From assembly GCF_964355755.1 (NCBI RefSeq), contig NC_092670.1, positions 3,400,201 through 3,464,200 on the forward strand: a DNA stretch of 64,000 bases, read 5' to 3'. The stretch is from Antedon mediterranea. Lineage: Eukaryota > Animalia > Echinodermata. Under the pieces are notes generated by a model that ran no database searches, was not told the DNA's origin, and saw nothing but the letters and a program-made list of their open reading frames with translations. Position 1 is the stretch's first letter, and each line of letters starts with the position of its first letter. Shown here piece after piece: positions 17,050 through 56,701 of this stretch. The translations under genes and the position numbers were made by a program.

Positions 17050-18051
17050 ATATTATACACCTATACTGCCATCAAGTCTTTTATAAAGTTATTTTCAACA
17101 GCGCCACCAATGATTTGAAATATAATAATAGTAGCTTTATGTATGTTCTAGTTGTGTTCCCTTTCATTGTTTTTTTATCTGTTATGTATTTTACATAAAT
17201 AAATGTCATAAATCGCATAAATAGACGTAAAAGTTGATATGCAAACCAAGAATTCAAGCATATCTGTATAATTGTGAAATATATTGAGGTAAAGAAGACA
17301 AGTAAAAATACACTGTAAATAATTTATACATTATTTAAACCAAGCATTGTCAATATTGTCATAGTTATCAGGAGTGATTTTGTGTAACTTTTCATAATGA
17401 TAACAGGCCTCAATTTTTGCATAATATATCATGTAAATGGTGGATACCTAATACATTTACAAATTGCAAATTAATTTATATTTAAACTTTTGTACACTTT
17501 TTTTTACACGTTGTTTTATAACTGTAAAACTATCAATTAATTTCTTGGTTTCCATTGCTTCTTACAATTTATTGTATTTTTCTTATATAATTATATGTCA
17601 TACAAAACCATGATAAAACATAAACAAAATCGATTCACAATATATGATTTGTTTCACTTTTATTTACAAAAATATAAGTATTTTATCCTCATTTATTTAT
17701 AGCCAATCAAATGTACAAATATACAAAAAAAAAACATGAAATAAACAAAAAAGTAAATACAAAAATAAGACTTCTTCAGATAATAGGAGGAAAGTAACCT
17801 GGGTTACATAATAAACAAAATCAAATATGTTAAATACAAATATATATATATTGTAACATGCAGTTGAGTGCACTTTGGTTCAAAACTATATGACCCAATC
17901 ATGTGACCCAAGACCAACATATACTGACAAGATGGGAAATTTTAAAATCTTGATGCATAAATATACAATATAAATGTGCATGCCCTACAAAACTGTAGAT
18001 ACAAAAAAAATCTGCAGGAAAAAAAAATATGAGTGTAGGATATAGTAAACA

Positions 18052-21000: not shown

Positions 21001-22876
21001 TCCAAAGAAGTACTAGTTACTAATATACCTTGAGAGTTTCTGGTTTAAACTATGAGCAGACTTGCCTCCAAAGAAGTACTAGTTACTAATATACCTTGAG
21101 AGTTTCTGGTTTAAACTATGAGCAGACTTGCCTCCAAAGAAGTACTAGTTACTAATATACTTTGAGAGTTTTCTGGTTTAAACTATGAGCAGACTTGCCT
21201 CCAAAGAAGTACTAGTTACTAATATACCTTGAGAGTTTCTGGTTTAAACTATGAGCAGACTTGCCTCCAAAGAAGTACTAGTTACTAATATACCTTGAGA
21301 GTTTCTGGTTTAAACTATGAGCAGACTTGCCTCCAAAAAAGTACTAGTTACTAATATACCTTGAGAGTTTCTGGTTTAAACTATGAGCAGACTTGCCTCC
21401 AGAGAAGTACTAGTTACTAATATACCTTGAGAGTTTCTGGTTTAAACCATGAGCAGACTTGCCTCCAAAGAAGTACTAGTTACTAATATACCTTGAGAGT
21501 TTCTGGTTTAAACTATGAGCAGACTTACCTCCAAAGAAGTACTATTCACTAATATACCTTGAGAGTTTCTGGTTTAAACTATGAGCAGACTTGCCTCCAA
21601 AGAAGTACTATTCACTAATATACCTTGAGAGTTTCTGGTTTAAACTATGAGCAGACTTACCTCCAAAGAAGTACTAGTTACTAATATACCTTGAGAGTTT
21701 CTGGTTTAAACTATGGACAGACTCTCCTCCAAAGAAGTACTAGTTACTAATATACCTTGAGAGTTTCTGATTTAAACTATGAGCAGACTTGCCTCCAAAG
21801 AAGTACTAGTTACTAATATACCTTGAGAGTTTCTGGTTTAAACTATGAGCAGACTTGCCTCCAAAGAAGTACTAGTTACTAATATACCTTGAGAGTTTCT
21901 GGTTTAAACCATGAGCAGACTTGCCTCCAAAGAAGTACTAGTTACTAATATACCTTGAGAGTTTCTGGTTTAAACTATGAGCAGACTTGCCTCCAAAGAA
22001 GTACTAGTTACTAATATACCTTGAGAGTTTCTGGTTTAAACCATGAGCAGACTTGCCTCCAAAGAAGTACTAGTTACTAATATACCTTGAGAGTTTCTGG
22101 TTTAAACTATGAGCAGACTTACCTCCAAAGAAGTACTAGTTACTAATATACCTTGAGAGTTTCTGGTTTAAACTATGAGCAGACTTGCCTCCAAAGAAGT
22201 ACTAGTTACTAATATACCTTGAGAGTTTCTGGTTTAAACCATGAGCAGACTTGCCTCCAAAGAAGTACTAGTTACTAATATACCTTGAGAGTTTCTGGTT
22301 TAAACTATGAGCAGACTTGCCTCCAAAGAAGTACTAGTTACTAATATACCTTGAGAGTTTCTGGTTTAAACTATGAGCAGACTTGCCTACAAAGAAGTAC
22401 TCGTTACTAATATACCTTGAGAGTTTCTGGTTTAAACTATGAGCAGACTTGCCTACAAAGAAGTACTAGTTACTGATATACCTTGAGAGTTTCTGGTTTA
22501 AACTATGGGCAGACTTGCCTCCAAAGAAATACTAGTTACTAATATACCTTGAGAGTTTCTGGTTTAAACTATGGGCAGACTTGCCTCCAAAGAAATACTA
22601 GTTACTAATATACCTTGAGAGTTTCTGGTTTAAACTATGGGCAGACTTGCCTCCAAAGAAATACTAGTTACTAATATACCTTGAGAGTTTCTGGTTTAAA
22701 CTATGGGCAGACTTGCCTCCAAAGAAATACTAGTTACTAATATACCTTGAGAGTTTCTGGTTTAAACTATGGGCAGACTTGCCTCCAAAGAAATACTAGT
22801 TACTAATATACCTTGAGAGTTTCTGGTTTAAACTATGAGCAGACTTACCTCCAAAGAAGTACTAGTTACTAATACT
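18052..22876. repeat. 66-bp tandem array, ~73 copies
   Basis: Unit aatataccttgagagtttctggtttaaactatgagcagacttgcctccaaagaagtactagttact; stops in all six frames. Confidence 0.97.
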
Positions 22877-23600: not shown

Positions 23601-24590
23601 TAGAACATGATAAGATCTAACTTGGGTGACTGAGGTGGGACCCCTACATTTAACACATTCAGACTAGGTGGGTACTAGAACATAAGATAAGATCTAACTT
23701 GGGTCACTGAGGTAGGACCCCTACATTTAACACATTCAGACTAGGTGGGTACTAGAACATAAGATAAGATCTAACTTGGGTCACTGAGGTGGGACCCCTA
23801 CATTTAACACATTCAGACTAGGTGGGTACTAGAATATAAGATAAGATCTAACTTGGGTCACTGAGGTAGGACCCCTACAATTAACACATTCAGACTAGGT
23901 GGGTACTAGAACATAAGATAAGATCTAACTTGGGTCACTGAGGTTGGACCCCTACATTTAACACATTCAGACTAGGTGGGTACTAGAACATAAGATAAGA
24001 AGATCTAACTTGGGTCACTGAGGTTGGACCCCTACAATTAACACATTCAGACTAGGTGGGTACTAGAACATAAGATAAGATCTAACTTGGGTCATTGAGG
24101 TGGGACCCCTACAATTAACACATTCAGACTAGGTGGGTACTAGAACATAAGATAAGATCTAACTTGGGTCACTGAGGTGGGACCCCTATATTTAACACAT
24201 TCAGACTAGGTGGGTACTAGAATATAAGATAAGATCTAACTTGGGTCATTGAGGTGGGACCCCTACAATTAACACATTCAAACTAGGTGGGTACTAGAAC
24301 ATAAGATAAGATCTAACTTGGGTCACTGAGGTGGGACCCCTACATTTAACACATTCAGACTAGGTGGGTACTAGAACATAAGATAAGATCTAACTTGGGT
24401 CATTGAGGTGGGACCCCTACATTTAACACATTCAGACTAGGTGGGTACTAGAACATAAGATAAGATCTAACTTGGGTCACTGAGGTGGGACCCCTACATT
24501 TAACACATTCAGACTAGGTGGGTACTAGAACATAAGATAAGATCTAACTTGGGTCACTGAGGTGAAACTCCTGCATTTAACATATTCAGG
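23601..24590. repeat. 77-bp tandem array, ~13 copies
   Basis: Unit tagaacataagataagatctaacttgggtcactgaggtgggacccctacatttaacacattcagactaggtgggtac. Confidence 0.95.
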
Positions 24591-25347: not shown

Positions 25348-25910
25348 TCAATTATCTAAACTTGTCAATGCATTAACTTCATTAATCATTTCATATTCCC
25401 TAAGTTTCTCAATGAATTCATTCATCTTCTCTCCTTCTGTGAGATACCCTTCCATTTCTAATCTTAGAATTAAAGAATACGGATCAGTTACTTCACTAAT
25501 GCCATAAAATCGTCCAATGGTTTTCATGTTTTTAAAGCTTACCTTTTTACAAAATTTTAACAATTTTATACGATGATCTGAAAAGGTTTCAATTTGAACA
25601 TCTTCAAATTTTGGTACATGCCATTTTGGCTTTATCACTTCTTCAACACCACCCATCCCACACAATTTAATCAATTGGATTAGAACACGTATGTCAGTAC
25701 ATTTGATAACTCCAGGAAGGATAAGCAAGCTAATTAGTTCATGTGTATTTTCCGCCCCCTGGATATCGAAAAGTGTCATTTCACAATTCGGCCTATTCAT
25801 GAAGTCGCTAATCACCATTTTCATCTTGTTTAAACATTTTCCTCGGCCATGTGTGTCACACCAATTAGATACCCCTGTTATCAATTCGTTGAAGTCCGGG
25901 CGTGACAATT
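25348..25910 (-). CDS. Terminal exon: tandem death-effector-domain-like (death fold) region
   Basis: ORF 25348..25908 shows two helical units (FNELITGVSNW...LIQLIKLCG and FSDHRIKLLKF...LILRLEMEGYL) resembling DEDs. The exon is solid; the domain name is an inference. Confidence 0.7.
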
Positions 25911-28900
25911 CTAAAACAAAGATAGTAGACGAGTTTATAAATTTTAAATGACGTATTTCTCGTAGTGTGAATGGTGAATTTGACCATTAACTCCAGATTC
26001 ATATCATTTCATAGGATAGGCCCAGCTGATGTACACATTTAATTTTGTAAAAAGTGTCGTCGACAATATATATATTTCCAATATATTTACTGTAATTCAA
26101 CCAATGTAATTGAGGTATTGGGCAGAGTCAGAGTCAAAACCTATACAGAGATAAATTAATTGCCTTTTGGAATTAGTTTGAACACTGATATGAGGGTATG
26201 TTCAAATCCATGGAGTTATGCTTTCATATCACAAGCAAGGTTATAATTATAATTATCCTCTGAAGTGTCAAGTTTCCGGTATGCAAGAGTAAATTTTATT
26301 TCAAAATCATTGGTGCATGACTTTCATATCGTAAGTGTTGTACACTAATCTTGTACCTCAAGCTGTAGTAACAAACAAAAGGTCATTATTGTATCAGGTG
26401 GCTTCTACCAATCTTTTACTGGTTCAGACCGCATGGAATCCTATGTCGTGTATAATACGAACACAACCCTGTAGGTCTGAATATGCCCTGAATGCTTCTT
26501 CAAACAATGCACAGTAATTAATGTCAAAGAAAACAATTTAAAGGAGGGATAAACTGGTTTGAAAACATGAACAATGCGCAAATTAAAATTGTAATGTCTC
26601 AATTTACAAATTGTGACAATTGCCACCACTCAAATGTTACATTTGAAAAAAATGCATTGAAAATTGTCAACAAGTGTGTTCATTCAAGCCAAATTGAATT
26701 TATATTAGGAAATTGTAACATTTGTAATTTTAAATACCTGTTAGTTTTATTTGTTTTTCTTTAGGTCTTTCCTCCACAACATTCTTCTGAAACTTATCAG
26801 CAAGATCTTTTTGTCCATGTTCTCTTAGAGCCTCACACAATACATCAAGTTGATTCAATTTACTACTAATGTTCCTCCAAAATTTCAGAATTTCTTCTGG
26901 AGATTTCATAGTTGTAACTTCAGACAATTCCAAGCCCAAAAGAACACCTAACTGTTCACAGTTAACAGTTTCTTCAGATACTTTCCAAATAATTGAATCA
27001 TCCACATAACCTTATAAAATAGCAAAAATAAAGATAAATTCATCCAACAGTAAATGAATTGATTAAGTTTTCAAATATATGATCCTTCAATTTATAATGT
27101 CATAATAAAATCTACAAAATCATTACCTTGGAGATGAGACTGTGGCGGTATAGCTGTAAAAATAGATATGTATTTATCAACAAAATGTTCACAAGGTATT
27201 ATTTGTTTGAAGATTGTTATTAGTTATTACAAGTTCTACAGTATGCTATAGATATATTATATATTTTAAAACTGTTTATTCTTAAAATTTACTTACATTC
27301 AACATCAGTCTGTGAAGTAGCTATAAAAAAGAAATAAATATTAAATAAATGTAATTTCATCTTATATGGTATTACCATAGCGAAACGTATTGTTGCATTA
27401 ATGTGCATATGGCTGAAAAAATATTGTACCGTCCATTTCCCAATTTTTAATTAAATGCTTTTTATTTTAATATTAAGAACAGTAAAATATTTGACAAAGC
27501 AATAAATCTGGTTACTTACATCTTGGTATTACTTTATTTCCAAATAATTTACGGTAAAGTTTCACTTTCATTTGATTGCTTCCACAAGGTAACACATCTT
27601 TGTCAAACTCGCGAATAACATGCATGTGAGCATTTTGAATGTTTGGACTACATGCACAAGGGATGTACATCCTTACTTCAAGACCTCGTGCTCCAGTCTG
27701 ACTGAACACTTTTAATTCTGTTTGAAGGAAACGAAGCACCTAAAAAATGGCATTTTACAAAATGTTTAAAATACTGGAAAATATAAAATCAATATTCTCA
27801 ATCAATATTACTATGAAAATTGAATCCTAAACAAATGTTGAATAAATGCAAATTATTTTAACAATGGTGGCCTTTTATTATAGGATAAAAAGTACTTATT
27901 ATATTAAAACACTTTATTTATATTATTTTTATGAATAGTTTTAAAGTAATATTCCTAATGAAATCTTTCATAGATTGTTCACTCATAAATATTTAGAACT
28001 AAAATTAATGTATTCTGTATATCTCTTTTGTTTGTTACCACTATTTACTATTACCTTCTTACAGACTTTAGGCTGTGGTTTCTCATCTTTTGTACGCTGC
28101 CGTTTTTTTTGCTTATCAGTATTGAAGCTCTTTGTTCTGACTATTGTTGTCTACAATATCAAAATGATCAAAATTGTTAGTGGTAGTTTTTTAAAATTTA
28201 TTATTTCAATTTTATGTGGTGGAAACAATTATAAATCTCACTCATTTTAATATTGTACAATATATACACTTTAAAATTCTTGAGCTTTTCCAACTTGTAT
28301 CAATTATTGATATAAAGTTTGCGATACACCACGTATATTAGTTTCTATTGAGTTTCTCAAAGTTTCGATCAATATGCTTTGAACGTCCTCAGAAGTCACA
28401 ATGCAGGAAGTCCAGGAAAGTGGGAATATAAGTGAAATAGGTTGGGGCTGGTGTGAAAGCTACACATTTACCTGTAACATACGACAATGCTTAATGGTAG
28501 CCACATATAAAATGACTTGATGATTGGCATCAATGTTCAATTCTACATGCTCATAGGATAGGTGCCCAATTCCATAGTCTTCCATTTGAAATTTCTCAAT
28601 GAACTTTGTTGCAGCACGTTGGAAAAGATCGTCTGGAAGATAGCTACCAAAATCATGAAATAGAGAAATTGCACGCTTTTCTTCAAATTTAGGTGGTTGT
28701 GAGGCATGTGGTTTCAAACGTGAAAGAACGTAGAACATTTTTTCATTATTCTGTGTAAACAAAAAATTATTTAAAAACTAGTAGATCTGTAGGCTATATA
28801 TAGGCTAGAAAATTAAAATATTAATATGACATTAGTATCAATACCTTTGTATTTTTTTGTTCACACACTAATCCAAACTTTTGCATGAGAGACACAAAGA

Positions 28901-31900
28901 ATGTTAATGTCTCATCAGAATCACAGATCTTCTCCCACAGATGTTTTAGCAATCCACCTTTTAAAATGCCTTTTTCCAGCATCCTCCAAGCTGGTCTCAT
29001 AGCTGGTACCTATTATTTTACAAAAATAGAATATAATTAAAATTTTAATTTATTAATTCAGAGTAACATTGGTAGGCCTATAATTGATTTTTTTTTCCTG
29101 TTCTAATATATAAACATCTCATGACCTGTAGGCTATGTTTTGTTTGTCTTTATTGCAGTTCACAATATTTATGGTAAGCAGAATGACAAAGTGGATTTGT
29201 AGACTCATGTCTGCCAAAGCTACTCAGGCCAAGTTGAAATAATGTATTGATCTTTGAGTTCATATGATTGTATGATGGGTACCTATATCTCAGAGAAGTT
29301 ATTTCCAATCAAAATTTCAAACATTTATTAAACAAATTTAATTTTGAAGCATGTCATTATGTTGCTGCACGTCAGTATGCAAAACATTGTTTTGTATTGA
29401 AATATATTTATTGCTAACCATATCTTTATTGTCTATGACAGTGATGATTGTCTTAAACATGTCAACTAGTTGCATCAAATCTACAACTATTATATCTCTT
29501 AGTGCCTCATCATCTGGGTAATAGAGAATCACGCCGATGTCATGTAAATACTCAAGCAGAACTTTGTGACCTTCTGTTACTTTACAGACTTCTTTGAGTA
29601 CTTCATCTTGAATCTGTTAAAAAAAATAGATTGATTAAAACCATATGACAATTCTAAAACAATTATAATAAAAAAACAGTTTATTTAATATACTATCAAT
29701 TTTCAAATAGTCTTCTGGATTACAAAACCTGCTCTCAAAACATTGTGTACTAGTATATTTAGAATGTAATTCCTCTATTTTTTATATTTTCCCAACTTTA
29801 ATGTAACAGTACATAGTTATAAATACATACTATAGAGATTTAACTTTATATATCAAGTACATCTACTGGTGAATATGGTAGTTGACTGAAAGCTTAATAT
29901 ATTTATTTATTCTGTCTTTATACTGAACTAGATGGTACGCTCGCTTCGCTCGCGTACCATCTAGGTCGTGCCCACAGATGGTTCTCGAATACATAATAAT
30001 TTCAGCGTTAAAAAACTGGCGATTTCAAATGTACGTACCGCAGGACAATAATACATGTCGTGTACAGGAACGAATAAATAGACACTGTGATTTATGTACT
30101 CAACTAAAATCAGCACCCTATTACTTCCGAAAGAGAAACTTGTCACAAATAAGACCAATTGTTTAAGTCAAATTTAAACAAACTTAATTTGTGTTTTGTA
30201 TGTAACATTAGGGTTGAGGGATGGGGAAGAGGATGGGTGCAAAGAGGAACAATGTTAAAATATATTCTTTATCCATTTAGTAACGAAATATTAATTGCTT
30301 TCATGTTTTACAAATAATATACCACTAAACACAGTAAAACATTGCGATGTAATACTTTGTTGAAACTATCACCGTCCTAGTCGATTGAAATAGTACAGAA
30401 CATGTAACGATACATCACCAAGACGTGTATATGTTTATAATACTGTATAATGTAAAACAATTTGTGAAAACCACCTCTATTCGGGGAAAATCATAAATTC
30501 GATTTAATCGTCAATAAATATTAAATTATCTAACTCAACTTAATTAGTAGGCCTAATGGTTTTCAATTGTTTCTTAGAGCCAATTCATACTTAAGTTGGT
30601 TCCTACCCTACCCACCAAAGTTGTTCTGCGTTTAGGGCATGTGATGTACCGTAGGCCTATTCTCTACTGGTTTTACAACGCTACTCATGCCAGTGAGGGA
30701 AAGGTGATGATGTGGGTGGTTTAACTGCAATAATAAAGATTTGTACATAATATACGGCGAGTGAAAACGCTAGCTCATTATCCGTTTAAAAAAAAATTAT
30801 ATCCAACCTCTGCAGCACAGATTGAAAACAAAAATGGATCGAATTTCGAGTATACAGTACTGTACTTGCCTTTATATTACGACGCCTGAGGGAATAGACA
30901 CTTGTGAAACAGAGATTGGAATGTTCCATTCATCACAAATCAATACATTTGTATAATCGTATATTAAATCTATCAAAATAGTATTTTTTTAAGAAAATCG
31001 GCCTGTCTTCAACATTATGATGCTGTACTCTAGCTGTTCAACCAGTTTTCAGCTATTAAAAACAATTATCATAGGAGGAGATAGGAAAATGCGAAGCCTC
31101 CTCGTATTTTTGTGGCGGGTATTTTTCAAGATGGACATCCATTAGACAGTGTATACCACGATCGGAAAACACCCCTATTTGGGGCAAATCGTTGAACCTA
31201 AATTCGTTTTAATCGTCAATAACTAATTACCTAACTCAATTTAATTAGTAAACAGGGTTACATCAGATGGTTAAAATCAGTACCGAAAGTATGAACGAAC
31301 TTTATATACCATCGAGTAGAAATTCTAGAAATAAACCGAGATTTACCGAATTTTGCCCTTACGTAAATTTATATATAGATGACACTTTCAGTGCTAAAGC
31401 ATTGATTTCCAAAGTGGTTCAGTAGAGAAAAATTAACAATATAATAAAATAAAAAGTAATTTACATTAGTAGACACATTTACAAAAAGGTAACTATCTAT
31501 AAAACATACAGTATATATAAAAAAAATGGAGGGAATTAAAGGTAAAAGGTACTTAATCAGTAATAATATTAAAATCAATCCAAAATATTATTTTGGATTG
31601 AATTTTTAAAAAGTGTCATAGATTTAATATAAAAAAAATAATTGTTTTATTCAGGCCTAGGATTTTAATGAGGAATTTTATTTTTGTGCCTTAATGCTAT
31701 GTGTGATTATGCTATTTTCACTACAACCATCTGTATGCAAATTTGGTGGAATGGTTATGTAACCAGCCTTTCAACTAATAACAATAGTTTCAGTTGATTA
31801 ACAATAGAACAGCAATGCCAAAAACAAACCTCCAAAATTTAATGGAGTGGTCCTTGACTACATATCTATCTGTATTTTCATTTTGGTAAAGGTCTTTCAA

Positions 31901-34900
31901 TAACTTTTGAGTAATCCTGCTAACAAACAAACAAACCGACAAACAAACAGACACATGCGATTGACTACATAAACTTCCTTGGCGGAGGTAAATAATTGAT
32001 TGGTAAGAAAATGTTAATATGAACCTATAGATGGCTATAAATTTACCTCTTACATCACACCACCTGTACATTTTCAGATGATTAAAAAGTAGCAATGTAT
32101 ACCGAAAATGGAGATCTGACTAATCAATATAGAACAAATACTGTAAACCTTATTTGTGAATCTTTCTTTATAAAAGAAATTGCCACATTATTAATAATTC
32201 ATTCAATTATTAATATTGAACGCTATTGTCTATAAATTCTTGCACCTAACCTCAGAAGTTGGTAAATAGATGTGCTTCTTTCTGCTGTGGATTTCTTGTT
32301 GAACTCGCAGCCATTTTATTGGCAAAGTGCGAATCATTTTCTTTGACAAATCCAGTATTTGTTTCATGATGGCAGAAGCATTGCTCTGTTCAAATGGTAC
32401 ACTGTTTTCAATGGTAAAAATAGTTGAACACACCATAGTTTCATATGGTTTGTCTTTTAGGGCTTCCCAAATTTTATTTTCTATTTCTTTAACCTGAAAG
32501 AAAGATATACATTTGTTATGTAGTTTCTAATATTTCTTATTTTAATCAGATTAATTAGAATAATCAAAAGACTATTTAGATAGTGATTGCTAAACGTTGT
32601 GATCCAGTTTTAGGATTAAAAAAATAGAAGATTGAATCCACTGCCTATGAAAAAAGTTTCTGCATTGTTGTGTCATGGTGATTTCTCTATGGTAGAGTCA
32701 ACTCACCTGTTCTTTCCTTTCTTCTTCAGTTCCTTTAAGGCCATTTAAATGTGTACCTATCAGTAATACAGGAGGACAAGGCTGACCATTTATCTTTGCG
32801 TCAGGTCTACTGTTTGTGTATATGGACTGAATCCAAGAAAGAATGAACTCCAGATTTGTCATTCGATGGTCATAATTGTTTCCCTAAATTTTATAAGTAT
32901 ATATGATAACAAAAAAATGTTTGTAGAACACTCAATTTTAATTTCTTTGATCATGTATAATACTGTATACAACAATTGAAAAAAACGTAATTGTTCAATC
33001 TATTGTTATTCATTTATTCAGTAATGGAGGAAAAGAATGTTCATTTATTAATGTAGTTTGTGTTGAATTGTCTATGGATAAAAAGATGTGAGAAGCTAAT
33101 TGATAAGTCTTAAAACTTTAAGATGTGTTCAGAGCAAAGGTATACATTTTTCACTATAAAGCAATCACAATCAAGGAATTGAAAATAGTGTTTAAAAACT
33201 AATAAAATTCAGCTTACAGTTGTTGGATCCAAAACTTTAGCTTGGGCATCGAGATCATCACAAAGGTTGAATACTACGCATACAACAGCAAAAGATACCA
33301 TGAAGATCTATGAGATCAATTAAACAGTGTATTAAAAAAATGGTGAATATAAAAAAATGCTTGATTATCAATGAAATTTAAATTTGGAAATGCAGTGTTT
33401 GTTTTTCATAGTGTTTTAATTTTTAGATTAAAAAAATAGCTGAGTCTAGACTACTACTAAATTTATTACAGGTTTGCCATATGATAGATATTTGTTGCTA
33501 GAATTCATAAGAATAATATTTTACTTGTTTATTTTTTTACTACTGTATATTAGTGTTGTCTTATTAGAGGAATTGTGGGGAATATAGTTATATTACCATG
33601 CTGGGTCATGCAGGCTCCATGCCGGCATCAGGTAAAATATCCAGTATATACCAGCTGAAAGTTGGTATATACTGGATATTCCGATCCCTGCTGTAGATAG
33701 TTATGCTGGTAACGATACAGGCAGTGGCATAACGCAGAGGCCTGATGCCCCTGGATTAGGAACCCCAGGCCCTCCAAGGCTGGAGGCCTAGGGCGTTTTT
33801 AGCCCTTTTTGACATATTTTAATGCCTGTATTTTCCTCTGGACACTGCCCAGGGCCCCCACATGCTCCGGGGCTCCTGGTTTTAGCCAGTGAGTGTTCAT
33901 AGCCATTACGCCACTGGATGCAGGCATCATTGGTCTCTTGAATTTGAATTGGTTGTTGTTTTTTGGCAGTTGGTGAGCATTCAATTATTTCCCTGTTTAC
34001 CATTCAGAATCTCTTCCTGAATGCTACCAATGATCTGAGCATTTACACTACCATTCAAAATATCTCCCTGAATTTTTATTTATTTATTTATTTAGGTTTA
34101 AAAAACACATACAAAACAGCAGCCATTGGCTGATAACGTTTGTTTACAATCAATATACATATATAATTAAAAGTAAAAGAGGCACAATTACAAACAGCAT
34201 AGAAAAATAACTATATATTATAAAACACAAAATACAGTATTATTCGTTCATAAAATTGAGTACGTCATTATTATTATTATTATTTAAGATTATTATTAGT
34301 ATATAAATTATTAAAATTATTATATAAAAGGTCGAAACGGCATCGAGAAAGTGAGAAATAATCATGGAAATCAACCCATATCAGTTAGCATTAATAAACT
34401 TAACAATCGTAGGTATGGCAGACCTTTGGTATCGTTCAGTTTTACACCTGGGGGGAAGGAGACTTCCGGTACTAGTTGTATTAGACCTAAGGGTTCTCTT
34501 CTGCCAGCGGCAAGGAGGTAGCATGTCTCGAAAACAGTTGGACTTGAGTAACCCCCTCCCAAAGGACAACACAAGAGTGTCTCTCCTTGCCTCGAGAGAA
34601 GGTAACCCTGTAACCTCTAGGGCATTGTCATAGGAAATGTAGGTAGCACCTAACATTATTCGACATGCTCTTTTCTGGATGGTCTCAATGCTGCTGGCCA
34701 TTTTTTTGGTAATAGCACCATGCCATACCTGGCAAGCGTATTCCAAGATGGGCCTATAATACTGGCATTTTGCTTCCACGCCTGTGAGAAAAGGGCTTTA
34801 TGTACTTACCCGCTGCATCACATGATAAATTTGTTGTCCTCCGAAATCCCAGATGTTCATCACAAACTTGTCGCTAGTCACCTTGTCATCACTCCCTTCT

Positions 34901-37900
34901 TTCTGAAACTCAACTATTAATTTTTCAATTTCTGACGGAATCTTTATCTGGTCATCTCTTCCTTCTTTCTCAATCTCTATCTTTGAAGGAATCTTTGTCT
35001 GGAGTTTTTCTTTCTCTATATATTCATTAAAATAAATTAAAATTAAACATCCAATAGCATGTTTAATATGTATGTCATTTTTCTAGGCCTTTTATTAGGA
35101 TAATTTATTTTAGGATTCTAATTATTTTAGCAATGGTGATTATAATTATTAATTAATATAGAAAAGTGCATTGTTAGCCAAGATCCCAACAGAATAACAC
35201 ATTGTCTGATGATTTCAGGTTCCAAATTAGCTTCCCTAATAATTCTACTCGGCTTTTCGTTCCCTACTCAAAAAGAAGAGTTGTCGATATAGTGCCTTTG
35301 CAATTGCCACGTATCTTGAAAGCACTCTTCGTCAATTAGTGAGGATGGAATTTTAAGATATTCGTCTTTCATTGAATTTGTTTTGAGGATTTTTGTATAA
35401 TATTTATTTTGTTTAATACTAATATACAAATATAGTTAACAGAGCTAAAGCTAACAGAGGTGCCTTGAAAATAGGTCTGGTTGTGTTTTAGACACAAAGG
35501 CCCATAGTTTTAATGAAACAAAGTTTGAAAAAAAATTTGAAATAGGCAAAGTATATAAAACATTAAAAGACACTAACTGTTCTAAAATCTTTAATTAAAT
35601 TAATCCACCTTTTCCATCTTAAATCAAATATGAAATTCCAGGCCACAAGTCAAAAACCCATGTAAAAGTCAGTGCTTAGTTTTGGTAGAGCAGACAGTGA
35701 AATATTAGGTGAAATGTAATAATAATGCACTTAAAATTCCTATTAACATTTTTACTTACCGTCATCCATTTGGCTTTCTTCTGTTTTAGTTGATTGTGCT
35801 GGATTTTCTTTCTCCATATGTTTCACAAGTGTTTTTTGGGGAGAATTTTCATTGCCAGAAGGCTGTTTTGCTGATGCTGTTGTAACCTCTGCTTGTAGCA
35901 CACTATTCTTGTTATCAGAAGCATTTTCTGTTGATGCTGTTTCACGTTTTTCTTCTCGCACATCACCATCAGAACCATTTTGCTTTTCTTTCAGTTGTTT
36001 TGCCACATTTCTAGCAACTGCTTCCTCATACATTTCAGAAGCTTGAGCTTTAAAAAAATAAAAATTGATTTTGTATATTATACTTGGATACTATGAATAT
36101 GTTAATTATTATTAAACATTTTAAAAGGAAGAAACACACATATCCATGGTAATTACAGAATAAATCTAGTTCTGTGTTGTACCAAAAATAATTTAGGTAA
36201 AAAGAAGCAAGGTAAGAATGGTATCAATTTATTTTAAATTTGTTTAAATTAAAGCAGTAATCAAGAAATTGTATGTAAAACAGATTATTATATAAATAAC
36301 ATCCATAAAACATGACAATATAACTTCATAATCAGATTAAAGAATTAAGGAATTTCTGTGAAGCAGCTTTCATCAGATAGCTGACAGCGCAGCAAGAAAA
36401 ATATGGGAGGCTTTGTCAAAAAAGAAATGTTCGCAAACGTGTGTTGATAAATGTTGGCTAGTTTCGTAAGTATACTTCTTTAAAAAAAATTCAATTTCCA
36501 GTAAGCAGAACAATAAATGCAAAATAAACATGGGTGGATGGAGTACCATGAAAATTGCCAATAGTACAAACAATTAAGCACTATCAAAGTGGCTCTCCAA
36601 TACTTCAAACCAAAAAAATATATAAGGGTAAGGGGGTTAACAGTATTAAGTTTCGAATAGTACTTGGAATCCAGCACAACACATTTTTAAACAGGATAAA
36701 ATGGAACAAGTCTGGGACAAAGTCTTTGGTGCTAACTGGGTTAATAATTTAGTATTTTGCATCTTTTTTTGGTTTAATTTGCATGTTAATGTATACTTTC
36801 TGTTTCTTGCCATATTGTTTCATCTGCATCATCTTGAGAACACACTGTTTTTGTTGTTGCTATGGCATCAGTTATTTCATGCTTTGATTTAAAACTACAG
36901 AAAAAAATGAATATTATTATTTCACTTCAATAGCCATACAATATATATATAAACCCATCTTAATCATTCAATGTTTTTCAAGTCAGCCTTTTGGGATTAT
37001 ATTAATATTATTATTAGTGTATTTATAACAAAAATGAATATACAAAGAGTAATATTTTTCAGTTGGCTCATAAAGTATGTTTTGGTGTCATCAGTTAATT
37101 AAAAGTAAATTCCCATAAATTGATAATGATAAAATGCCTACAATTGAGAAGAATATGTTTAAATGTATATTAAAACTAAAATGTACACATAGATTATGTC
37201 CCGTGAGTCAAGATAGATTTTCAACTCAAACCCCTTTAATAGTAGTGATATTTGGGGGAAAACAAATATTTTTGGTTTTTTTAATTATTTGTCATTCAGA
37301 GCATTGGGGTCTTGGTGTATGTTTTTAATTTAATAAATTGTTTTAAACAACATTGATACCACAATTTTCTTACCTTTTCCTTAGTAATGAATTGATAGTA
37401 GAAGTTTTTCCTACTCCCTCAAGACCTACAAAAATAACTCTGCCCTGTTTAACTCCAGTTTTCCCTTCTTCCAGGGCTTCATTGAATGCTCTAACTGCTT
37501 CTGGTCCTCGAGCCCGTATCTCAATTGGAGTGGAATCTTTAAAAAATAAGTATTTAATAGTACTTTTACAATAAAGTTATTATATATTTATTATTACTAT
37601 GCATTCATATTGGACACTTAATTAATACCTCTCACTTTTTTTTAATTTATAATCCTTGTTAATTTGCTTTTAGAATGATTTTATAATGCACGATTTCTAT
37701 AGGTTATTTCATTAAAATAACCGATACATTTTATTTTGTAAATAATAGTTGATAATAATAATATAAAATAGAATACTTTAATAAATACCAATATCTTACC
37801 ATCAAAGTTGCTGAGCCTTTGTAATATACTTGGATGTTGTAACATTGTAGTAGTACCAAGAAAACCAACTGCAAACTCTCTTGCCACCTTTAGATTCTTA

Positions 37901-40900
37901 CTTTCTCTTATCATCTTCCATTCATTATCATCCAAAGGAGTAAGTAATTGCCTTACATCTCCTGTACTTTCACTCTCTGTGTGTTCACTTTCACATAATT
38001 TGCACAAGTAAAATCCTACCAATGACTCTGCTATCAACTTGTGAGGAGGCATGAATATCCGTTCAAAGTTGGATTTTGAAATTGGTGCTTCTTCATAAAC
38101 AAATCCAAGTTTCACGGACATGTCAACCAAATCTGTACTCGTATGTTTATCATTAAAATCTTTCATCTTTATTAAAAGTTGATTTACTTTTAGGCTATCA
38201 TACATACATTTTCCCAATAAAATCATAGCATTTACATACTTTGCTGGAGTGTCTTCAAATTTAGAAAGCTTTGCGAATTGGTTTTGTTTGTTGAACTGAT
38301 TTAAAATGCTATGAAATATTTCCTTAAAAAGATTAGCTTTATCTTTAGGAAGACTTTGATTGTCTTCCCATAGAATACAAATTGAAAGAAGTAGCATTGG
38401 ATTTTTGCACATTGAATATACGTCCTCGTGTTTTCGTTGCCTACCCTGATACATAATATCTAATTCTCTTCTAAGGGATTTTCCCATTTCTGGTTTTTCA
38501 AAATACTCAAAGTGTTTGTTAATATACTTCCCTATGCTCTCTTCATTAAATCCCTTAACTCTTACATGTATGTTACACTCTTTTTTGAATTCATCTATGT
38601 TTTCTGACCGGGAAGTAAGTATCACAGTACTTTTTTTTAAAGAGTTTTTTCTGAAAAGACTAATTACGCTTTGATTATTGAATCTCAATTCCTCTAATCC
38701 GTCAAGTAGCAACACAACTTTATTTTCATGTTTCTTTATAAATTTCTTAATTACCCGTGCATCTTTTGGGAGATCTGTGTCTAAATTAAAATCTGTCATA
38801 TCCAGTTGCTTTGCAATTAAATCACATATATCTTCATCTTTTTCCAAATCCCTTACACATAAAAGAAATACAATTTTACCTTCAAAGATATTGAATTTAT
38901 TAAGTGTAGCCCATGTGTATGATATATGCCTTAATATGGTAGTTTTTCCAATACCTCCCTGTCCTTCAATGAGAGCTTTACATCCAGGTGTGGAGCTAAT
39001 TACATCTATCACTTCTTCTAATGTTGTTGGTTTGCTGGTTTCTGTATTGTTTTCACGTTCTATAAGCAGTTCCATATCAGTAAACATCTGTGAAATGTCA
39101 ACTTTGTATTTCTCACGCATTGTTGCAGGTGTAAATATACTGGCCTGGATACACTTGTCCTTTTGTATGTGAATCAGATATGTTTGTATTATTTCTAAAA
39201 ACAAGGAAATATTTTGGGTATTGCTAAACTGCGCAAACCAAGCGCAAACCTAAAAAACCCTGCGCAAACCTCCTCCAAATAACTTATTATTGGTTCTATC
39301 ATGACCAGGACTATAATTTATGAAAAAAAAATTATGAAATTGCGGTTAAAGTTGGTGAAAAACATCATTTTTTGGGTAAAATGTAAGATTTTACAGTGTA
39401 AATGGCGCAAACCTAAAAAAAACCTGCGCAAACCTCCTCCAAATCACTTATTATTGGTTCTATCATGACTAAGACTATCATAGCAGGTAATTTATGAAAA
39501 AAAAAATAATGAAATTGCTGTAAGTTGGCTTTTTTTGGGAGAAAAACATCATTTTTTTGGGTAAAATGTCAGATTTTACAGTGTCAGCCAAGCCAACTTA
39601 CAGTAATTTCATAATTTTTTTTTCATAAATTACTTGCTATGATAGTCCATGTCATGATAGAAGCAATAATAAGTGATTTGGAGGAGGTTTGCGCAGATTT
39701 TTTTTAGGTTTGCGCGATTTACACTGTAAAATCTGACATTTTACCCAAACAAGGCCAACAGCCATTAAGTCGCGTGCTACAATGCATAGTGATACCGGAC
39801 CGACAGACAAACAGACCGACAGACAGACAGACCGACAGACAGACGGACCGACCGACATAGTGAACTATACTGACCGAAATTACTGAACATGTTTAAAAAT
39901 GTTGAAATGTTTAAAAACATTTATATTTTTTTAATTTACACGTGCGTAGCCTGTCACTTTTGTAATTTCGAGTTGAAAAGTAAGTCAAGAAAACAGAAAT
40001 CGGGTAAAAAGAGTGCGCAATAACATTTAACGCGCAGTGCGTGCGCAAAAATCTGCGCACTCATGGCAATTTTGTAAACGCTTAAAATTGCCTGAAACGT
40101 ACTCTTATTTCATCGAAAATAAATTTTGAAAATTTTAAGCGCGCGTGCGCATGCGCTACGCACGTAATTGTATTGCCATATGATGATTTATGCCCTGAAA
40201 TTTATGAGTACCAAATTTTATTTAATTGTGATTCATGGTTGTTGTTAAGATATGATTACAAACGTGATTTCGTTAAATCGTGCGTAGACCGCGTAATTTT
40301 TTATTGCGCACCGTGAAAACATAACCACATCGATTCCTGGCCATAAGGAATATTCTGTGAAAAATTGACTTAGCTAGATTAAACTGATATGAAGATAAGG
40401 TCATAAAACGATAAAACGCATAGTGATACCGGACCGACAGACAGACCGACAGACAGACAGACCGACCGACCGACATAGTGAACTATAGAGTCGCTTCCAC
40501 GCGACTAAAAATGATGTTTTTTGCCCCAAAAATAAGCCAACTTACAGTAACTAGATGGTACGCTCGCTTCGCTCGTGTACCATCTAGTTCGTGCCCACAG
40601 ATGGTTCTCGAATACTGTACATAGTAATTTCAACGTAAAAAAACTGGCGATTTCAAATGTACGTACGGCAGGACTATAAAACATTGTCGTTTACAGAAAC
40701 AAATAAGTAGACACAATGATTTATGTAGTCAACCAAAATTAGCACCTAGAAACTTGTCACAAAATGAGTCGACATTTGTTATTTGGACTCACTTAAACAA
40801 ACCCAATTTTGTTAAATTATTCTTTATATTTCTTTATTATCCAATCATTAACGAAATATTTTTTTTATAGGCCTATAAATAATATACCACTAAATAGAGT

Positions 40901-43900
40901 AAAACATTTCCGATTTAATACTTTATTAAAACTGTCACTGTCTCATGGTCGATTGAAATATTAAAGTACATTTAAAGACCACTAATACGTTTATATTTTT
41001 GTAATTATTAATACAAACGTTAAGAAACAACTGACGGTAATAACGTATTATATTATTATGTGTTTATAATCTAAAAGTAGGGGCTACCCACACTCACAGT
41101 GATAAAGTTTATTAGTATATTTGTTTATATTATATCTAACAGTACCAACACACTTATGATTCAAATGGCGATCAAAAGTGGTTAATACCTATTTGCAGTA
41201 TTGTATAGCATTACAATACTATTTCTGTTTATTCTCCAAGGGTCTATAAATTTACCTACTTGTGTTAAACCATGGAGGTATTTTGCTATAATTTGGAATG
41301 TTCCATTCATCGCAAATAAATACATTTCTATAAACGTATATTAAATCTATCAAAATAGTATTTTTTAAAGAAAATCGGCCTGTCTTCAACATTATGATGC
41401 TGTACTCTAGCTGTTCAACCGGTTTTCAGCTATTAAAAACAATTATCGTAGGAGGAGATAGGAAAATGCGAAGCCTTCTCGCATTTTTGTGGCGGGTATT
41501 TTTCAAGATGGACATCCATTAGACAGTGTATACCACGATCGAAAAACACCACTATTTGGGGCAAATCGTTGAACCTAAATTCGTTTTAATCGTCAATAAC
41601 TAATTATCTAACTTAATTTAATTAGTAAACAGGGTTACATCAGGTGGTTAAAATCAGTACCGAAAGTACGAACCAACTTTATATACCATCGAGTAAAAAT
41701 TCTAGAAGTAAGGCGCGATTTACCGAATTTTGCCCTTACGTAAATTTATATATAGATTTCATAATTTTTTTTTCATAAATTACTTGCTATGATAGTCCAA
41801 GTCATGATAGAAGCAATAATAAGTTATTTGGAGGAGGTTTGCGCAGGTTTTTTTTAGGTTTGCGTGATTTACACTGTAAAATCTGACATTTTACCCAAAA
41901 CAATGATGTTTTTCACCCAACTTACAGCAATTTCATAATTTTTTTTTCTCATAAATTACCTGCTATGATAGTCCTGGTCATGATAGAACCAATAATAAGT
42001 GATTTGGAGGAGGTTTGCGCAGGGTTTTTTCACGTTTGCGCTTGGTTTGCGCAGTTTAGCAATACCCAATATTTTTAGCTTGATTAAACTAAAGTTTTAT
42101 TAATATATCATTACATTTATTTATGTGATATTTCATAAAATTGTTGAATGTTTTGCATTCCTCTAATTATTTTTATGTTTCTAATTTTGTATCTATATAT
42201 AAATTTACGTAAGGGCAAAATTCGTCAAATCGCGTGTTACTTCTAGTATGAATGTTTACTCGATGGTATATAAAGTTGGTTCGTACTTTCGGTACTCATT
42301 TTAACCACCTGATGTAACCCTGTTTACTAATTAAATTGAGTTAGATAATTAGTTATAGACAATTAAAACAAATTTTAAAGGTTCAACAATTTTCCCCAAA
42401 TAGGGGGGGGGGGGGGAGGTTACCGATTGTGGTATACACCGTCTAATGGATGTCCATCTTGAAAAATACCTGCACATAATAATACGAGGATGCTTTGCAT
42501 TTACCTACCTCGTACGATAATTGTTTTTAGTATCTGAAAACCAGTTTAACAACTCAAGTACAGCATCGTATAATGTTGAAGAAAGGCCAATTTTCTTTAA
42601 AAAAAATACTATTTTGATAGATTTAATATACGTTTATACAAACGTATTGATTTGCGATGAATGGAACATTCCAATCTCTCTTCCACAAAGCGTCTATTCC
42701 CGCAGGCATAATAACACAAAGGCAAGTACTGTAGGCATAATAACACAAAGGCAAGTAGGCCTACACTCATATAAAAAAAAGTTGATTCATTTTTTTTTTA
42801 ATCTGTGACTGCAGAGGTCGGATATAGGTATTTTAAAACAGATAATGAGCTGATCACGTTTTCAGTCGCCGTCTATATCTGTACAATCAACTTTATTGCA
42901 GTTCAAACACCACCCACATCACCATCAATATTAATTAATACTGTAATTACAACAAAAATAAACATCGTATTGGTGTATCATTACATTTATTTACTATTTG
43001 TTCCTTAAATTTGTTCCTCTTTGCACCCATCCTCTTCCTCATCCCTCAACCCTAATGTTACATACAAACCACAAATTGGGTTTGTTTAAATTTGACTGAA
43101 ACAATTCGTCTCATTTTGTGAAAATTTTCTCTTTCAGGCAGAAGTAATTCCCAGGGTGCTAATTTTAGTTGACTACATAAACCGTGTCTATTTATTCATT
43201 CATTCCTGTAAACGACATTGTCCTGTGGTACGTACTTATTATCTATATATAAATTTACGTAAGGGCAAAATTCGGTAAATCGCGCGTTACTTCTAGAATG
43301 TTTACTCGATGTTATATAAAGTTGGTTCGTACTTTCGGTACTGATTTTAACCACCTGATGTAACCCTGTTTACTAATTAAATTGAGTCAGATAATTTAGT
43401 TATTGACGATTAAAACGAATTTAGGTTCAACGATTTGCCCCAAATAGGGGTGTTTACCGATCGTGGTATACACTGTCTAATACATGTCCATCGTGAAAAA
43501 TACCCGCATACAATAATACGAGGATGCTTCGCATTTTCCTATCTCCTCCTACGATAACTGTTTTTAATGGCTGAAAACCGGTTGAACAGCTCGAGTACAG
43601 CTTCATAATGTTGAAGACAGGCCGATTTTCTTTAAAAAATACTATTTTGATAGATTTAATATCCGTTTATAGAAATGTACTGATTTGCAATGAATGGAAC
43701 ATTCCAAATTATTGCATACCTCCATGGTTTAACACAAGTAGGTAAATTTATAGACCCTTGGAGAATAAACAGAAATAGTATTGTAATACTATATACAATA
43801 CTGCAAATAGGTATTAACCACTTTTGATTGCCATTTGAATCAAAAGTGTGTTGGTACTGTTAGATATAATAATTATAAACAAATATACTAATAAACGTTA

Positions 43901-46900
43901 TCACTGTGAGTGTGGGTAGCTCCTACTTTTAGATTATAAACACATAATAATATATACTTTATTACTGTCAGTTGTTTCTCAACGTTTGTATTAATTAATA
44001 ATTACAAAAATATAAACGTATTAGTGGTCTTTAAATGTACTTTACTATTTCAATCGACCATGAGACAGTGACACTTTTAATAAAGTATTAAATCGGAAAT
44101 GTTTTACTCTATTTAGTGGTATATTATTTATAGGCCTATATAAAAAAAATATTTCGTTACTGATTGGATAATAAAGAAATATAAAGAATAATTTAACAAA
44201 ATTGGGTTTGTTTAAATGAGTCCAATAACAAATTTCGACTCATTTTGTGACAAGTTTCTAGGTGCTAATTTTTGTTGACTACATAAATCATTATGTCTAT
44301 TTATTTGTTTCTGTAAACGACAATGTTTTATAGTCCTGCCGTACGTACATTTGAAATCGCCAGTTTTTTTACGCTGAAATTACTATGTATTCGAGAACCA
44401 TCGAGCGAAGCGAGCGTACCATCTAGTTATTAAAATTAATAAAATTACTGGGTATTCGAGAACCATCTGTAGGCACGAACTAGATGGTACGCGAGCGAAG
44501 CAAGCGTACAATCTAGTTAATTTAAATTATCTAGCTTCATTCCTTGAATAGTTTTTGTCACGCAATCATAAATAAGCTTTATAGAGTGAGTGTGACCCAA
44601 TATAATTTTTAATTACGTTAATAATTTTTATAATTTGGAACTATCTATATATAAATTTACGTAAGGGCAAAAATCGGTAAATCGCGCGTTATTTCTAGAA
44701 TATTTACTCGATGGTTGGTTCGTACTTTCGGTACTGATTTTAACCACCTGATGTAACCCTGTTTACTAATAAAATTGAGTTAGATAATTAGTTACTGACG
44801 ATTAAAACGAATTTAGGTTCAACGATTTGCCCCAAATAGGGGTGTTTTCTAATCGTGGTATACACTGTCTAATGGATGTCAATTTGAAAAATACCCGCAC
44901 ACAATAATACGAGGACACTTCGCATTTTCCTATCCCCTCCTACGATAATTGTTTTTAATAGCTGAAAACCGGTTGAACAGTTCGAGTACAGCGTCATAAT
45001 GTTGAAGACAGGTCGATTTTCTTTAAAAAATGCTATTTTGATAGATTTAATATACGTTTTTACGGGGTTTATACAAATGTATTGATTTGCGATGAATGGA
45101 ACATTCCAATCTCTGTTCCACAAGTGTTATTCCCTCAGGCGTCGTAAAGGCAAGTACTGTATACTCATAACAGAAATTCGATCCATTTTATTTTTATTCT
45201 GTGCTGCAGAGGTTGGATATATATATTTTTTAACGGATAATGAGCTAGCGTTTTCAGTCGCCGTACATTATGTACAAATCTTTAATTGCAGTTAAACCAC
45301 CCACATCATCAACCTTCCCTCACTGGCATGAGTAGCGTAGTGGTACGAAGGATCAACAACAACTTTGGTGGGTAGGGTAGGAACCAACTTAAGTATGAAT
45401 TGGCTCTAGAAACAATTGAAAACCATTAGGCCTACTAATTAAGTTGAGTTAGATAATTTAATATTTATTAACGATTAAATCGAATTTATGATTTTCCCCG
45501 AATAGAGGTGGTTTTCACAAATTGTTTTAACATTATATATAAACATACGTCGTAGTGTATCGTTACATGTACTGTACTATTTCAATCGACTACGACGGTG
45601 ATAGTTTCAACAAAGTATTTACATCGCAATGTTTTTACTGTGTTTAGTGGTATATTATTTGTAAAACATAAAAACAATTAATATTTCGTTACAAAATAAA
45701 GAATATATTTAAAAATTGTTCCTCTTTGCACCCATCCTCCCCATCCCTCAACCATAATGCTACATACAGAACACAAATTAAGTTTGTTTAAATTTGACTT
45801 AAACAATTGGTCTCATTTTGTGACAAGTTTCTCTTTCTGAAGTAATTCCCAGGGTGCTAATTTTAGTTGAGTACATAAATCACAGTGTCTATTTATTCCT
45901 TCCTGTATTATTGTCCTGCATTATTGTACATTTGAAATCGCCAGTTTTTTAACGCTGAAATTATTATGTATTCGAGAACCATCTGTGGGCCCGACCTAGA
46001 TGGTACGCGTACGCGTACCATCTAGTAATTTAAAATATACTCAACAGAGGGCAGCAAAGGATTTTTATGACATAAACCTAAAACTTGTATAAGTGTGAAA
46101 GTGAAAATATTCTTATTAAAAACTAAAATATATAACATTAAGAAATATTGTTATTTATCTTAACATCTCTCTTTATCCATATCAATGACGGTTTGGTGCA
46201 CCGTATAGGCATACGAACCTAATTAGCCTATTGAAAGAATATTGAAAGAGCGGATATGTTTACTATGGTAGGAATGCCATGCTGTAGACAAGGATCCCCT
46301 TTACTGTACTTGTAAAATTATCATTAAATCCAAAATCGGTTTATAAATTCTAGCATCTTATATAGTTAATTTACTTCTTCAGTTTGTTTGATTTTTATTA
46401 CTATCATAATGATGCCATTTGTATTCAAACATATACTTCAGAAGTAAAAATTAAAACTTTAGGGTTAATTACTATAGATAATTGGGCATACTGATTATTA
46501 TTATAGGTGATATATACGAAAGCCCATTAATGCCATTTTAAGTATATGTTTTTCGAACGTAATCCGTTATAACGAATTAGTAATTCGTTTGAACGGATTA
46601 ATAATCTGTTTAAACGAATTAGTAATCCGTTCAAACGAATTGCAACATATACAACAAGTGCCATTTAAAGTATATGTTGTAATTCGTTTGAACGGATTAC
46701 TAATCCGTTCAAACAAATTACTAATTTGTTTAAACGGATTACTAATTTGTTCAAACGGATTACTAATCCGTTCAAACGAATTACTAATTTGTTTAAACGG
46801 ATTACTAATTCGTTCAAACGAATTACTAATTTGTTTAAACGGATTAGTAATCCGTTCAAACAAATTACTAATTCGTTCAAACGAATTAGTAATCCGTTTG

Positions 46901-56300: not shown

Positions 56301-56701
56301 GGACTCCAATAATAATGAAAATACACACTTCAAATTTGTATAGTGGTTTTAGATGTTTTATTCTCACTGCTTTTATATCTACACATGTGCTCGGTCTTAT
56401 TTATCTTCTTTCTCTGTCGCCTTCTATCGGACGTTATGTCTTGTATATTTGGAGGGTTACAGTACGTTGTCAATTTTTCTTTTGTTTCTAGATAAGTTTC
56501 GTTCCCCGTCGTGTGAGTTTCACTTATTTCAAACACATCCTCTCCTCCTAGGTGGAGTAACATTGCTCGTTTCCGTCCGTCATCGGTAATTGCCTTAGCA
56601 ATGAGAAAATTATCAAAACGCTTAAGCCAGCGTTCCCACCTAGTTGGTGCCGTTTCCGTGGGTTCAGATTTGAACGGTAAAATAGAAGACTTAATGTCCA
56701 T
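53306..56701 (-). pseudogene. gag-pol: gag-protease-RT N-terminus, split by a nested LTR element
   Basis: ATG at 56701; LTTY|FAPKRNVEYE rejoins across the insertion; Zn knuckle CHKCKRSNHFASVC, protease IDTGA, RT WAAPIVPVLK..RICGDYK; frameshift at ~53340. Confidence 0.9.
54648..56461 (-). mobile_element. Non-coding (TRIM/LARD-like) LTR element nested in gag
   Basis: 202-bp LTRs at 54648-54849 and 56260-56461 (2 mismatches seen), 4-bp TSD gtac, PBS TGGTGTCGTGAC (tRNA-His-like), PPT gagaggggg. Confidence 0.92.

Follow-up and report, generated by a model that had tools for sequence, protein, structure and literature searches.

A probable NLR-Roco chimera in the crinoid Antedon mediterranea, with domain borders at phase-1 introns

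Introduction

The shuffling of class 1-1 exons and domains (with phase-1 introns on both sides) is a known process in animals (PMC8001218; for lancelets, PMC4284660). In lancelets, class 1-1 accounts for 40-51% among shuffled exons, versus about 28% (PMC4284660). Shuffling of domains has been reported for NLRs (PMC2858798, PMC3879445, PMC8998645), and NACHT genes without leucine-rich repeats (LRRs) are known, such as a DEATH-NACHT clade in a sponge (PMC2858798, PMC3879445). Varied architectures have also been described for Roco proteins (PMC11378527, PMC9334734, PMC8195603), and exon shuffling of the LRRs of algal Rocos has been described, at phase 2 (PMC11378527). Here, we analyze a stretch of 64,000 nucleotides from the crinoid Antedon mediterranea (NC_092670.1, positions 3,400,201 to 3,464,200; we call the whole stretch the window, and all positions are numbered within it). 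It contains a gene with both a NACHT domain and a Roc-COR block, and its sequence suggests that this gene is probably a chimera, made by a rearrangement of the DNA, of the front end of an NLR and the back end of a Roco.

The junction of NACHT and Roc

The gene lies on the minus strand at 48699-25348 and has 19 exons, 18 introns (all GT-AG), and 1,519 open codons. The encoded protein contains, in order, NACHT, Roc-COR, a death domain (DD), and a caspase-8-like tandem death effector domain (DED). The RefSeq protein XP_071946662.1 (P0079 in our collection) is identical to residues 363-1519 of our model and therefore has the same junctions from 37800 downstream. The features around the junction are:

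39194-37856, minus strand: NLR-derived part (NBD, HD1, WHD, and the start of HD2), from the Pfam NACHT match; its 5' border is common to paralogues
37855-37800, minus strand: foreign tail of about 18 codons, ending in a phase-1 donor, from the divergence of paralogue contigs
37799-37537, minus strand: phase-1 intron of 263 nt that joins NACHT to Roc, bridged by short-read contigs and with the same junction in P0079
37536-37374, minus strand: first Roc exon, with the G1 P-loop, phases 1-2; its phase-1 acceptor is common to Roco paralogues
35015-27520, minus strand: rest of the Roc insertion, Roc G3-G5, and COR; nine exons, eight phase-0 introns, and a phase-1 end

The NACHT domain was recognized by Pfam (E = 1.3e-23), and a structural model of the whole exon aligns to residues 96-512 of NLRC4 (Z 30.4). 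We take residue 512 to be early HD2, from the domain limits of NLRC4, whose HD2 ends near residue 580. In the window gene, the likeness to NLRs stops at residue 466 (base 37855), which is inside HD2 and 55 nt before the exon's donor. Of 72 other NACHT matches, 66 reach this break: 59 have a conserved HW-type helix there, 6 have a variant helix, and 1 diverges and ends. The tail that follows the break in the window gene was found in none of these 66 relatives. At the DNA level, contigs from paralogues depart from the window at 37855 (7 contigs in sequencing run X5 and 8 in X4, with the divergence falling at 37851-37855), and their sequence beyond this point is open and coding, with no intron. 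Past the break, four close paralogues have another 157-164 residues before the first LRR motif, and two have 87-88.

Short-read contigs span the break, the tail, the intron, and the Roc exon (three runs, all of one sample; 5 to 31 differences), and the join is therefore not an error of assembly. The depth of the contigs at the junction was 18-28 (X2-X4), versus 39-51 on several downstream contigs; we did not use this drop as a sign of a downstream duplicate or of a single haplotype, since depth is not copy number. We rejected run X1 as a source of RNA evidence, as it covers introns and repeats just as DNA would. X1 also covers little of the single-copy sequence, and the gap that it leaves at the NACHT-Roc junction is therefore uninformative.

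The two halves of the gene have different relatives. In a tree of 50 NACHT sequences (matches covering at most 350 residues, and one isoform, were left out), the window gene is sister to the NACHT-LRR protein P0001 (support 99), inside a clade from Antedon. In a tree of 33 chosen Roc-COR sequences, its nearest distinct relative is P0091 (support 98), among Rocos that lack NACHT. As judged from these alignments, the trees disagree, which indicates two ancestries. Furthermore, neither Roc nor COR is present in any of 51 long NACHT relatives, nor, according to lists of Pfam matches, in any of 11 shorter ones. Among the 70 Roco-like and 60 NACHT proteins that we collected, NACHT and Roc-COR occur together only at this locus (P0079); the protein searches report cluster representatives only (P0079 sat behind P0052), and further fusions may be missed.

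Domains of the predicted protein

The NACHT part has much of what is expected of an NLR: NACHT with Walker A and B, HD1, and WHD, with Walker A and the WHD histidine intact and a variant Walker B. It has neither a complete HD2 nor C-terminal LRRs, as homology stops at residue 466, and with just 19 residues before NACHT, there is no N-terminal effector. Introns 0-1 yielded no remnant of an N-terminal tandem DED: a tblastn search with 51 NLRs detected this module in the last exon only. In the Roco part, Pfam identifies both Roc (47.2 bits, 3.1e-12) and COR-A (55.4 bits, 8.3e-15) in P0079, above their cutoffs. The G1 and G3 motifs of Roc are intact, and Roc is followed by COR, as in the definition of a Roco. 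By these sequence features, the gene does not qualify as an NLR and does have the Roc-COR of a Roco.

The DD scores 23.4 bits against the Pfam Death cutoff of 22.6 (exon 27010-26738). The structural model of the last exon is confident (pLDDT, the predicted local distance difference test, of 89.9) and matches the tandem DED of caspase-8 (Z 17.1, root-mean-square deviation 3.1, 167 residues aligned), so its predicted fold is that of a caspase-8 tandem DED.

Exons and intron phases

The remaining rows of the exon model, together with the full NACHT exon, are:

48699-48693, minus strand: first coding exon (ATG plus 4 nt), phases 0-1; same start in RefSeq P0138
47615-47565, minus strand: 51-nt linker exon, phases 1-1; resembles the repeated pre-NACHT linkers of crinoid NLRs
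39194-37800, minus strand: NACHT exon, 1395 nt, phases 1-1
36894-36797, minus strand: exon inside the Roc-COR block, phases 2-1
36047-35760, minus strand: 288-nt exon with a helix of the Roc insertion and a variable part, phases 1-1
35015-34810, minus strand: exon inside the Roc-COR block, phases 1-0
33307-33218, 32883-32707, 32493-32251, and 29613-29419, minus strand: first four of seven exons with phases 0-0
29009-28845, 28750-28472, and 28150-28055, minus strand: last three of these seven
27739-27520, minus strand: exon closing the Roc-COR block, phases 0-1
27320-27297, minus strand: 24-nt linker microexon, phases 1-1; present in P0052 and P0079
27153-27127, minus strand: 27-nt linker microexon, phases 1-1; present in P0052 and P0079
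27010-26738, minus strand: DD exon, 273 nt, phases 1-1, from Pfam Death
25910-25348, minus strand: last exon, tandem DED, a module found at the N terminus of crinoid NLRs

The 96-nt exon at 28150-28055 was placed using the RefSeq protein P0052. The sequence-only reading of this locus had listed the sizes and phases of the symmetric exons, and all of these are correct in the exon model derived from the sequence. It had also described the Roc-COR block as phase 1 at both ends, with mostly phase-0 introns in the C-terminal half of Roc and in COR; indeed, the block (37536-27520) has these ends, and a run of eight phase-0 introns starts where the G3 exon ends and extends across COR. All 7 of the introns outside Roc-COR are in phase 1, versus 2 of the 11 inside (P = 0.0023, Fisher exact test), and seven phase-1 introns at a rate of 0.3 each would have a probability of 0.3^7 = 2e-4, both values being descriptive because the module borders were drawn after the gene was seen. 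(The background ratio of intron phases is 5:3:2; PMC7259759.)

The 288-nt exon had been viewed as a module inserted into Roc. We found instead that it encodes 96 of the roughly 144 residues of a family-wide insertion in Roc, which continues into the next exon. The spacing between G1 and G3 is 141-231 residues in all 26 of the rows that have both motifs, and the first helix of the exon is conserved.

Reuse of modules among paralogues

The relatives of the Roc-COR block begin at one residue, whether this follows ankyrin repeats, a DD, one or four tandem DEDs, TAZ-KIX, or a piece of an LRR, and they end at one residue, before linkers, DDs, or a tandem DED. In P0091, a tandem DED flanks Roc-COR on both sides, and the borders correspond to the window gene's exons. 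Of the 162 informative alignment ends, 53 fall 5 residues or fewer from a phase-1 intron and 3 are close to a phase-0 or phase-2 intron; each of these two zones covers about 6% of residues, and the counts are descriptive, as the paralogues are not independent. Reuse of borders was judged from protein borders and, at the DNA level, for the Roc acceptor only: the AG for 37536 is at the same base in 4 DNA contigs of Roco paralogues (X5, agreement 0.68).

In the tree of tandem DEDs (51 rows; 10 isoforms or duplicate proteins were left out), the copies from NLRs and from Rocos interleave, and strongly supported branches force at least 5 changes of label. Furthermore, the first 200 residues of P0075 (a Roco) and P0003 (an NLR) are 78% identical, which by sequence is a recent swap of a tandem DED.

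The modules of the window gene have phase-1 introns on both sides, as in class 1-1 shuffling, and the same borders are found in other architectures for the Roc-COR block, the start of the DD, the tandem DED, and the start of NACHT; this is not so for the 3' end of NACHT or for the 288-nt exon. The view that the gene was built from plug-in modules thus holds in that paralogues reuse modules at the same phase-1 borders, with varied architectures and with domain trees that disagree, rather than one fixed architecture with congruent trees. It does not hold for the 288-nt exon or for the NACHT exon, whose 3' border is newly formed and lies 55 nt beyond the break in HD2.

We considered an excess of codons starting with G at the starts of modules (36/36 for DD, 16/18 for tandem DED, 46/65 for NACHT, and 18/27 for Roc, with a background of 29%) and rejected it as a signal, as 3 of 8 phase-0 controls were equally biased.

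Several other Roco models have unusual architectures. In P0055 (XP_071945975.1), a close paralogue, zf-TAZ and KIX domains precede Roc-COR, and a tandem DED follows. The zf-TAZ and KIX domains are typical of CBP/p300, and P0055 represents either a captured piece of a coactivator or a merged gene model. P0080 and P0081 (XP_071954575.1 and XP_071954574.1), encoded on the same chromosome, open with the last-LRR piece of an NLR (36 residues, with 78% identity to P0005) and are possibly a second NLR-Roco chimera. P0104 (XP_071952298.1) combines a COR end, a DD, a ZU5 domain, and a tandem DED in one model.

RefSeq models and splicing

The RefSeq protein XP_071952566.1 (P0138) is identical to residues 1-269 of our model and uses exons 0 and 1 and the NACHT acceptor. 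Reproducing it exactly takes one further feature, which rests on the annotation:

38444-38296, minus strand: intron of 149 nt (GT-AG) inside the NACHT exon

In the P0138 model, this intron shifts the frame into a stop, to give a product of 280 amino acids. The stop is near 38261, and P0079 starts about 95 nt later, at 38166. RefSeq has likely split one locus into two models, or P0138 might instead belong to a near-identical duplicate. P0052, which has 2 differences from our model in 943 residues, probably represents, by its sequence, a second copy of the gene's downstream part.

Skipping the NACHT exon, the DD exon, or any of the seven phase-0 exons would preserve the frame on paper. Across 19 pairs of paralogue isoforms labelled as such by RefSeq (a 20th pair compared two paralogues and was excluded), we found in-frame skips of linkers of 5-67 residues and small splice shifts, and no internal skip of a NACHT or DD exon. 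Alternative first or last exons remove the tandem DED (P0009) or the C terminus (P0080), and one isoform, P0011, has an in-frame loss of 55 residues within NACHT. In Anneissia, the isoforms P0120 and P0122 differ by 15 substitutions, the first 8 of them at residues 519-558 in COR; these may reflect mutually exclusive duplicated exons.

Origin and function

We propose that the front end of the gene (the start, the linker, and a NACHT cut inside HD2) would come from an NLR and the back end (Roc-COR, DD, and tandem DED) from a Roco. The rearrangement would have broken the NACHT exon, and a phase-1 donor 55 nt farther on would keep the frame open into the Roc exon. The chimera is likely to be recent and to have arisen from the swapping of modules between two expanded immune families; we infer that in-frame joins are so frequent because the families share phase-1 borders.

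Mouse NLRC4 is activated by the loss of HD2 or of the LRRs (PMC7583971, PMC5626397), and on this ground a NACHT that lacks LRRs and most of HD2 is predicted to inhibit itself poorly and to oligomerize. In the oligomer, the DD and tandem DED at the C terminus would be brought into clusters and may recruit FADD-like or caspase-8-like partners. Roc-COR could be a nucleotide-dependent switch that gates the clustering via the monomer-dimer cycle of Rocos (PMC6337361), and the frameshifting intron in the NACHT exon might limit the dose of full-length protein. That the full-length protein works this way in the animal is a tentative prediction. The broadest version is unlikely to be correct in full: crinoid NLRs and Rocos would share a pool of phase-1 modules, and the window gene would encode a functional immune protein with two switches, in which Roc-COR gates how a NACHT ring, freed from repression, clusters the DD and the tandem DED, and the frameshifting intron serves as a brake.

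Several observations weigh against this proposal. RefSeq has no full-length model: P0138 ends within the NACHT exon, and the first residue of P0079 is Met363, despite earlier in-frame methionines. Walker B reads DGLEE, versus DGLDE in 62 of 71 rows. The G4 motif of Roc (exon 32883-32707) is THLN and lacks the usual aspartate. This aspartate is also missing from all the other crinoid Rocos listed (with, for example, THLN, THYE, THLG, or THKG), in contrast to P0109-P0111, which have THAD; the nucleotide preference of the crinoid Rocos may differ, and G4-G5 is variable among Rocos (PMC6337361). The architectures of the paralogues are from automated gene models, with intron phases mostly inferred from protein borders, and the trees are quick IQ-TREE searches with SH-aLRT support only. 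The source of the tail was not found among the collected proteins (in six frames, the best score was 46, and shuffled sequences gave 41-50), nor was there a match within the window.

It is quite conceivable that the locus is instead a by-product of gene turnover that yields only a small piece of NACHT and, from downstream, a Roco message, and that the frame is open merely because it is young. The two RefSeq models fit end to end, Walker B is altered, many paralogue models are fragmentary, and the fusion was met once among about 130 proteins. Against this, the frame is open for 1,519 codons and all 18 introns are canonical. Also, X5 contains a variant of the junction with 13 differences, of which those listed are 12 in the 263-nt intron and 1 in the covered exon sequence, which hints weakly at constraint, and P0138 possibly derives from the near-identical duplicate. 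Or, a whole NLR (NACHT-HD2-LRR) might have fused to a Roco at a phase-1 intron, with HD2 and the LRRs removed later by an internal deletion. P0080 and P0081, which join the last-LRR piece of an NLR to Roc, speak for this, and the last residues of the tail loosely resemble the end of an LRR motif. We consider this route improbable, because the tail matches the collected proteins no better than shuffles do and the Roc-COR of P0081 is not sister to that of the window gene.

A fuller version of the sequence-only reading would have a whole symmetric NACHT exon shuffled in through introns and regulated skipping to give Roco-only or DD-less isoforms. The phases are as it described, the skips would be in frame, and paralogues do skip linker exons in frame. 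However, the 3' end of NACHT is a break within an exon, which already contradicts this origin, and the isoform pairs lose domains through alternative first or last exons rather than by skipping; this version is very unlikely. A false join of multi-copy NLR and Roco loci during assembly could be imagined given the many close copies of both halves and the near-identical duplicate P0052, and with contigs spanning the break, tail, intron, and Roc exon, it is hardly credible.

Other elements of the window

In intron 6, 34381-34797 (minus strand) is a frame of 138 codons with no Pfam match that is multi-copy in the contigs; it resembles the end of a non-LTR (long terminal repeat) retroelement. Other repeats in the window are:

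46510-47247: near-perfect palindrome in intron 1, resembling a foldback element, with 368-nt arms (97% complementary) that are 2 nt apart and a 21-nt repeat base
40600-44402: inverted duplication of 1.17 kb (94%) in the long intron; its repeat family recurs at 29927-31380
51303-54646, minus strand: frames like those of an LTR retrotransposon, with matches to RVT_1, integrase core, and H2C2
54648-54852 and 56260-56464: 205-nt repeat
18052-22874: satellite downstream of the gene, 66-nt unit x 73; CpG is absent in 18001-22000
23601-24589: satellite downstream of the gene, 77-nt unit x 13

Comparison with known systems

Phase-1 shuffling is already known, the resulting architecture was not found in print, and its function is predicted only: our literature search, of titles and the openings of abstracts and with subscription papers mostly outside it, returned neither a NACHT-Roc-COR protein nor a module pool shared by crinoid NLRs and Rocos. 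Shuffling of class 1-1 has mostly been described for extracellular domains. Here, death-fold modules are exchanged between two families of intracellular nucleoside triphosphatases (NTPases) of a single animal; these intracellular modules are all-helical or NTPases, and one of them is a block of 12 exons. Also, NACHT is joined at a break within its exon, which was rescued by a phase-1 donor, and a symmetric exon is thus no proof of whole-exon shuffling.

As in the expansions of NLRs reported from other invertebrates (PMC2858798, PMC3879445), there is a lineage-specific expansion of NACHT with death-fold partners. In contrast to those NLRs, the window gene has no N-terminal effector and no LRRs, its HD2 is cut, and it has instead Roc-COR with a C-terminal DD and tandem DED. 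As in the Rocos of Trichoplax and brown algae (PMC11378527) and the TIR-Roco of Aplysia (PMC9334734), a Roc-COR core is combined with varied immune or death domains; unlike in these Rocos, as described, the window gene has an N-terminal NACHT, and the shuffling is of whole domains, at phase 1, and shared with the NLR family.

The complex of LRRK2 and NLRC4 (PMC5626397) is another case of a Roco that acts with an NLR in innate immunity. There, separate proteins meet via WD40 and LRR domains, with a kinase step, and the window gene has none of these domains. If it is expressed, the gene would place the ATPase of an NLR and a GTPase of the LRRK2/DAPK type in one chain, as a natural test of how two such switches are coupled.

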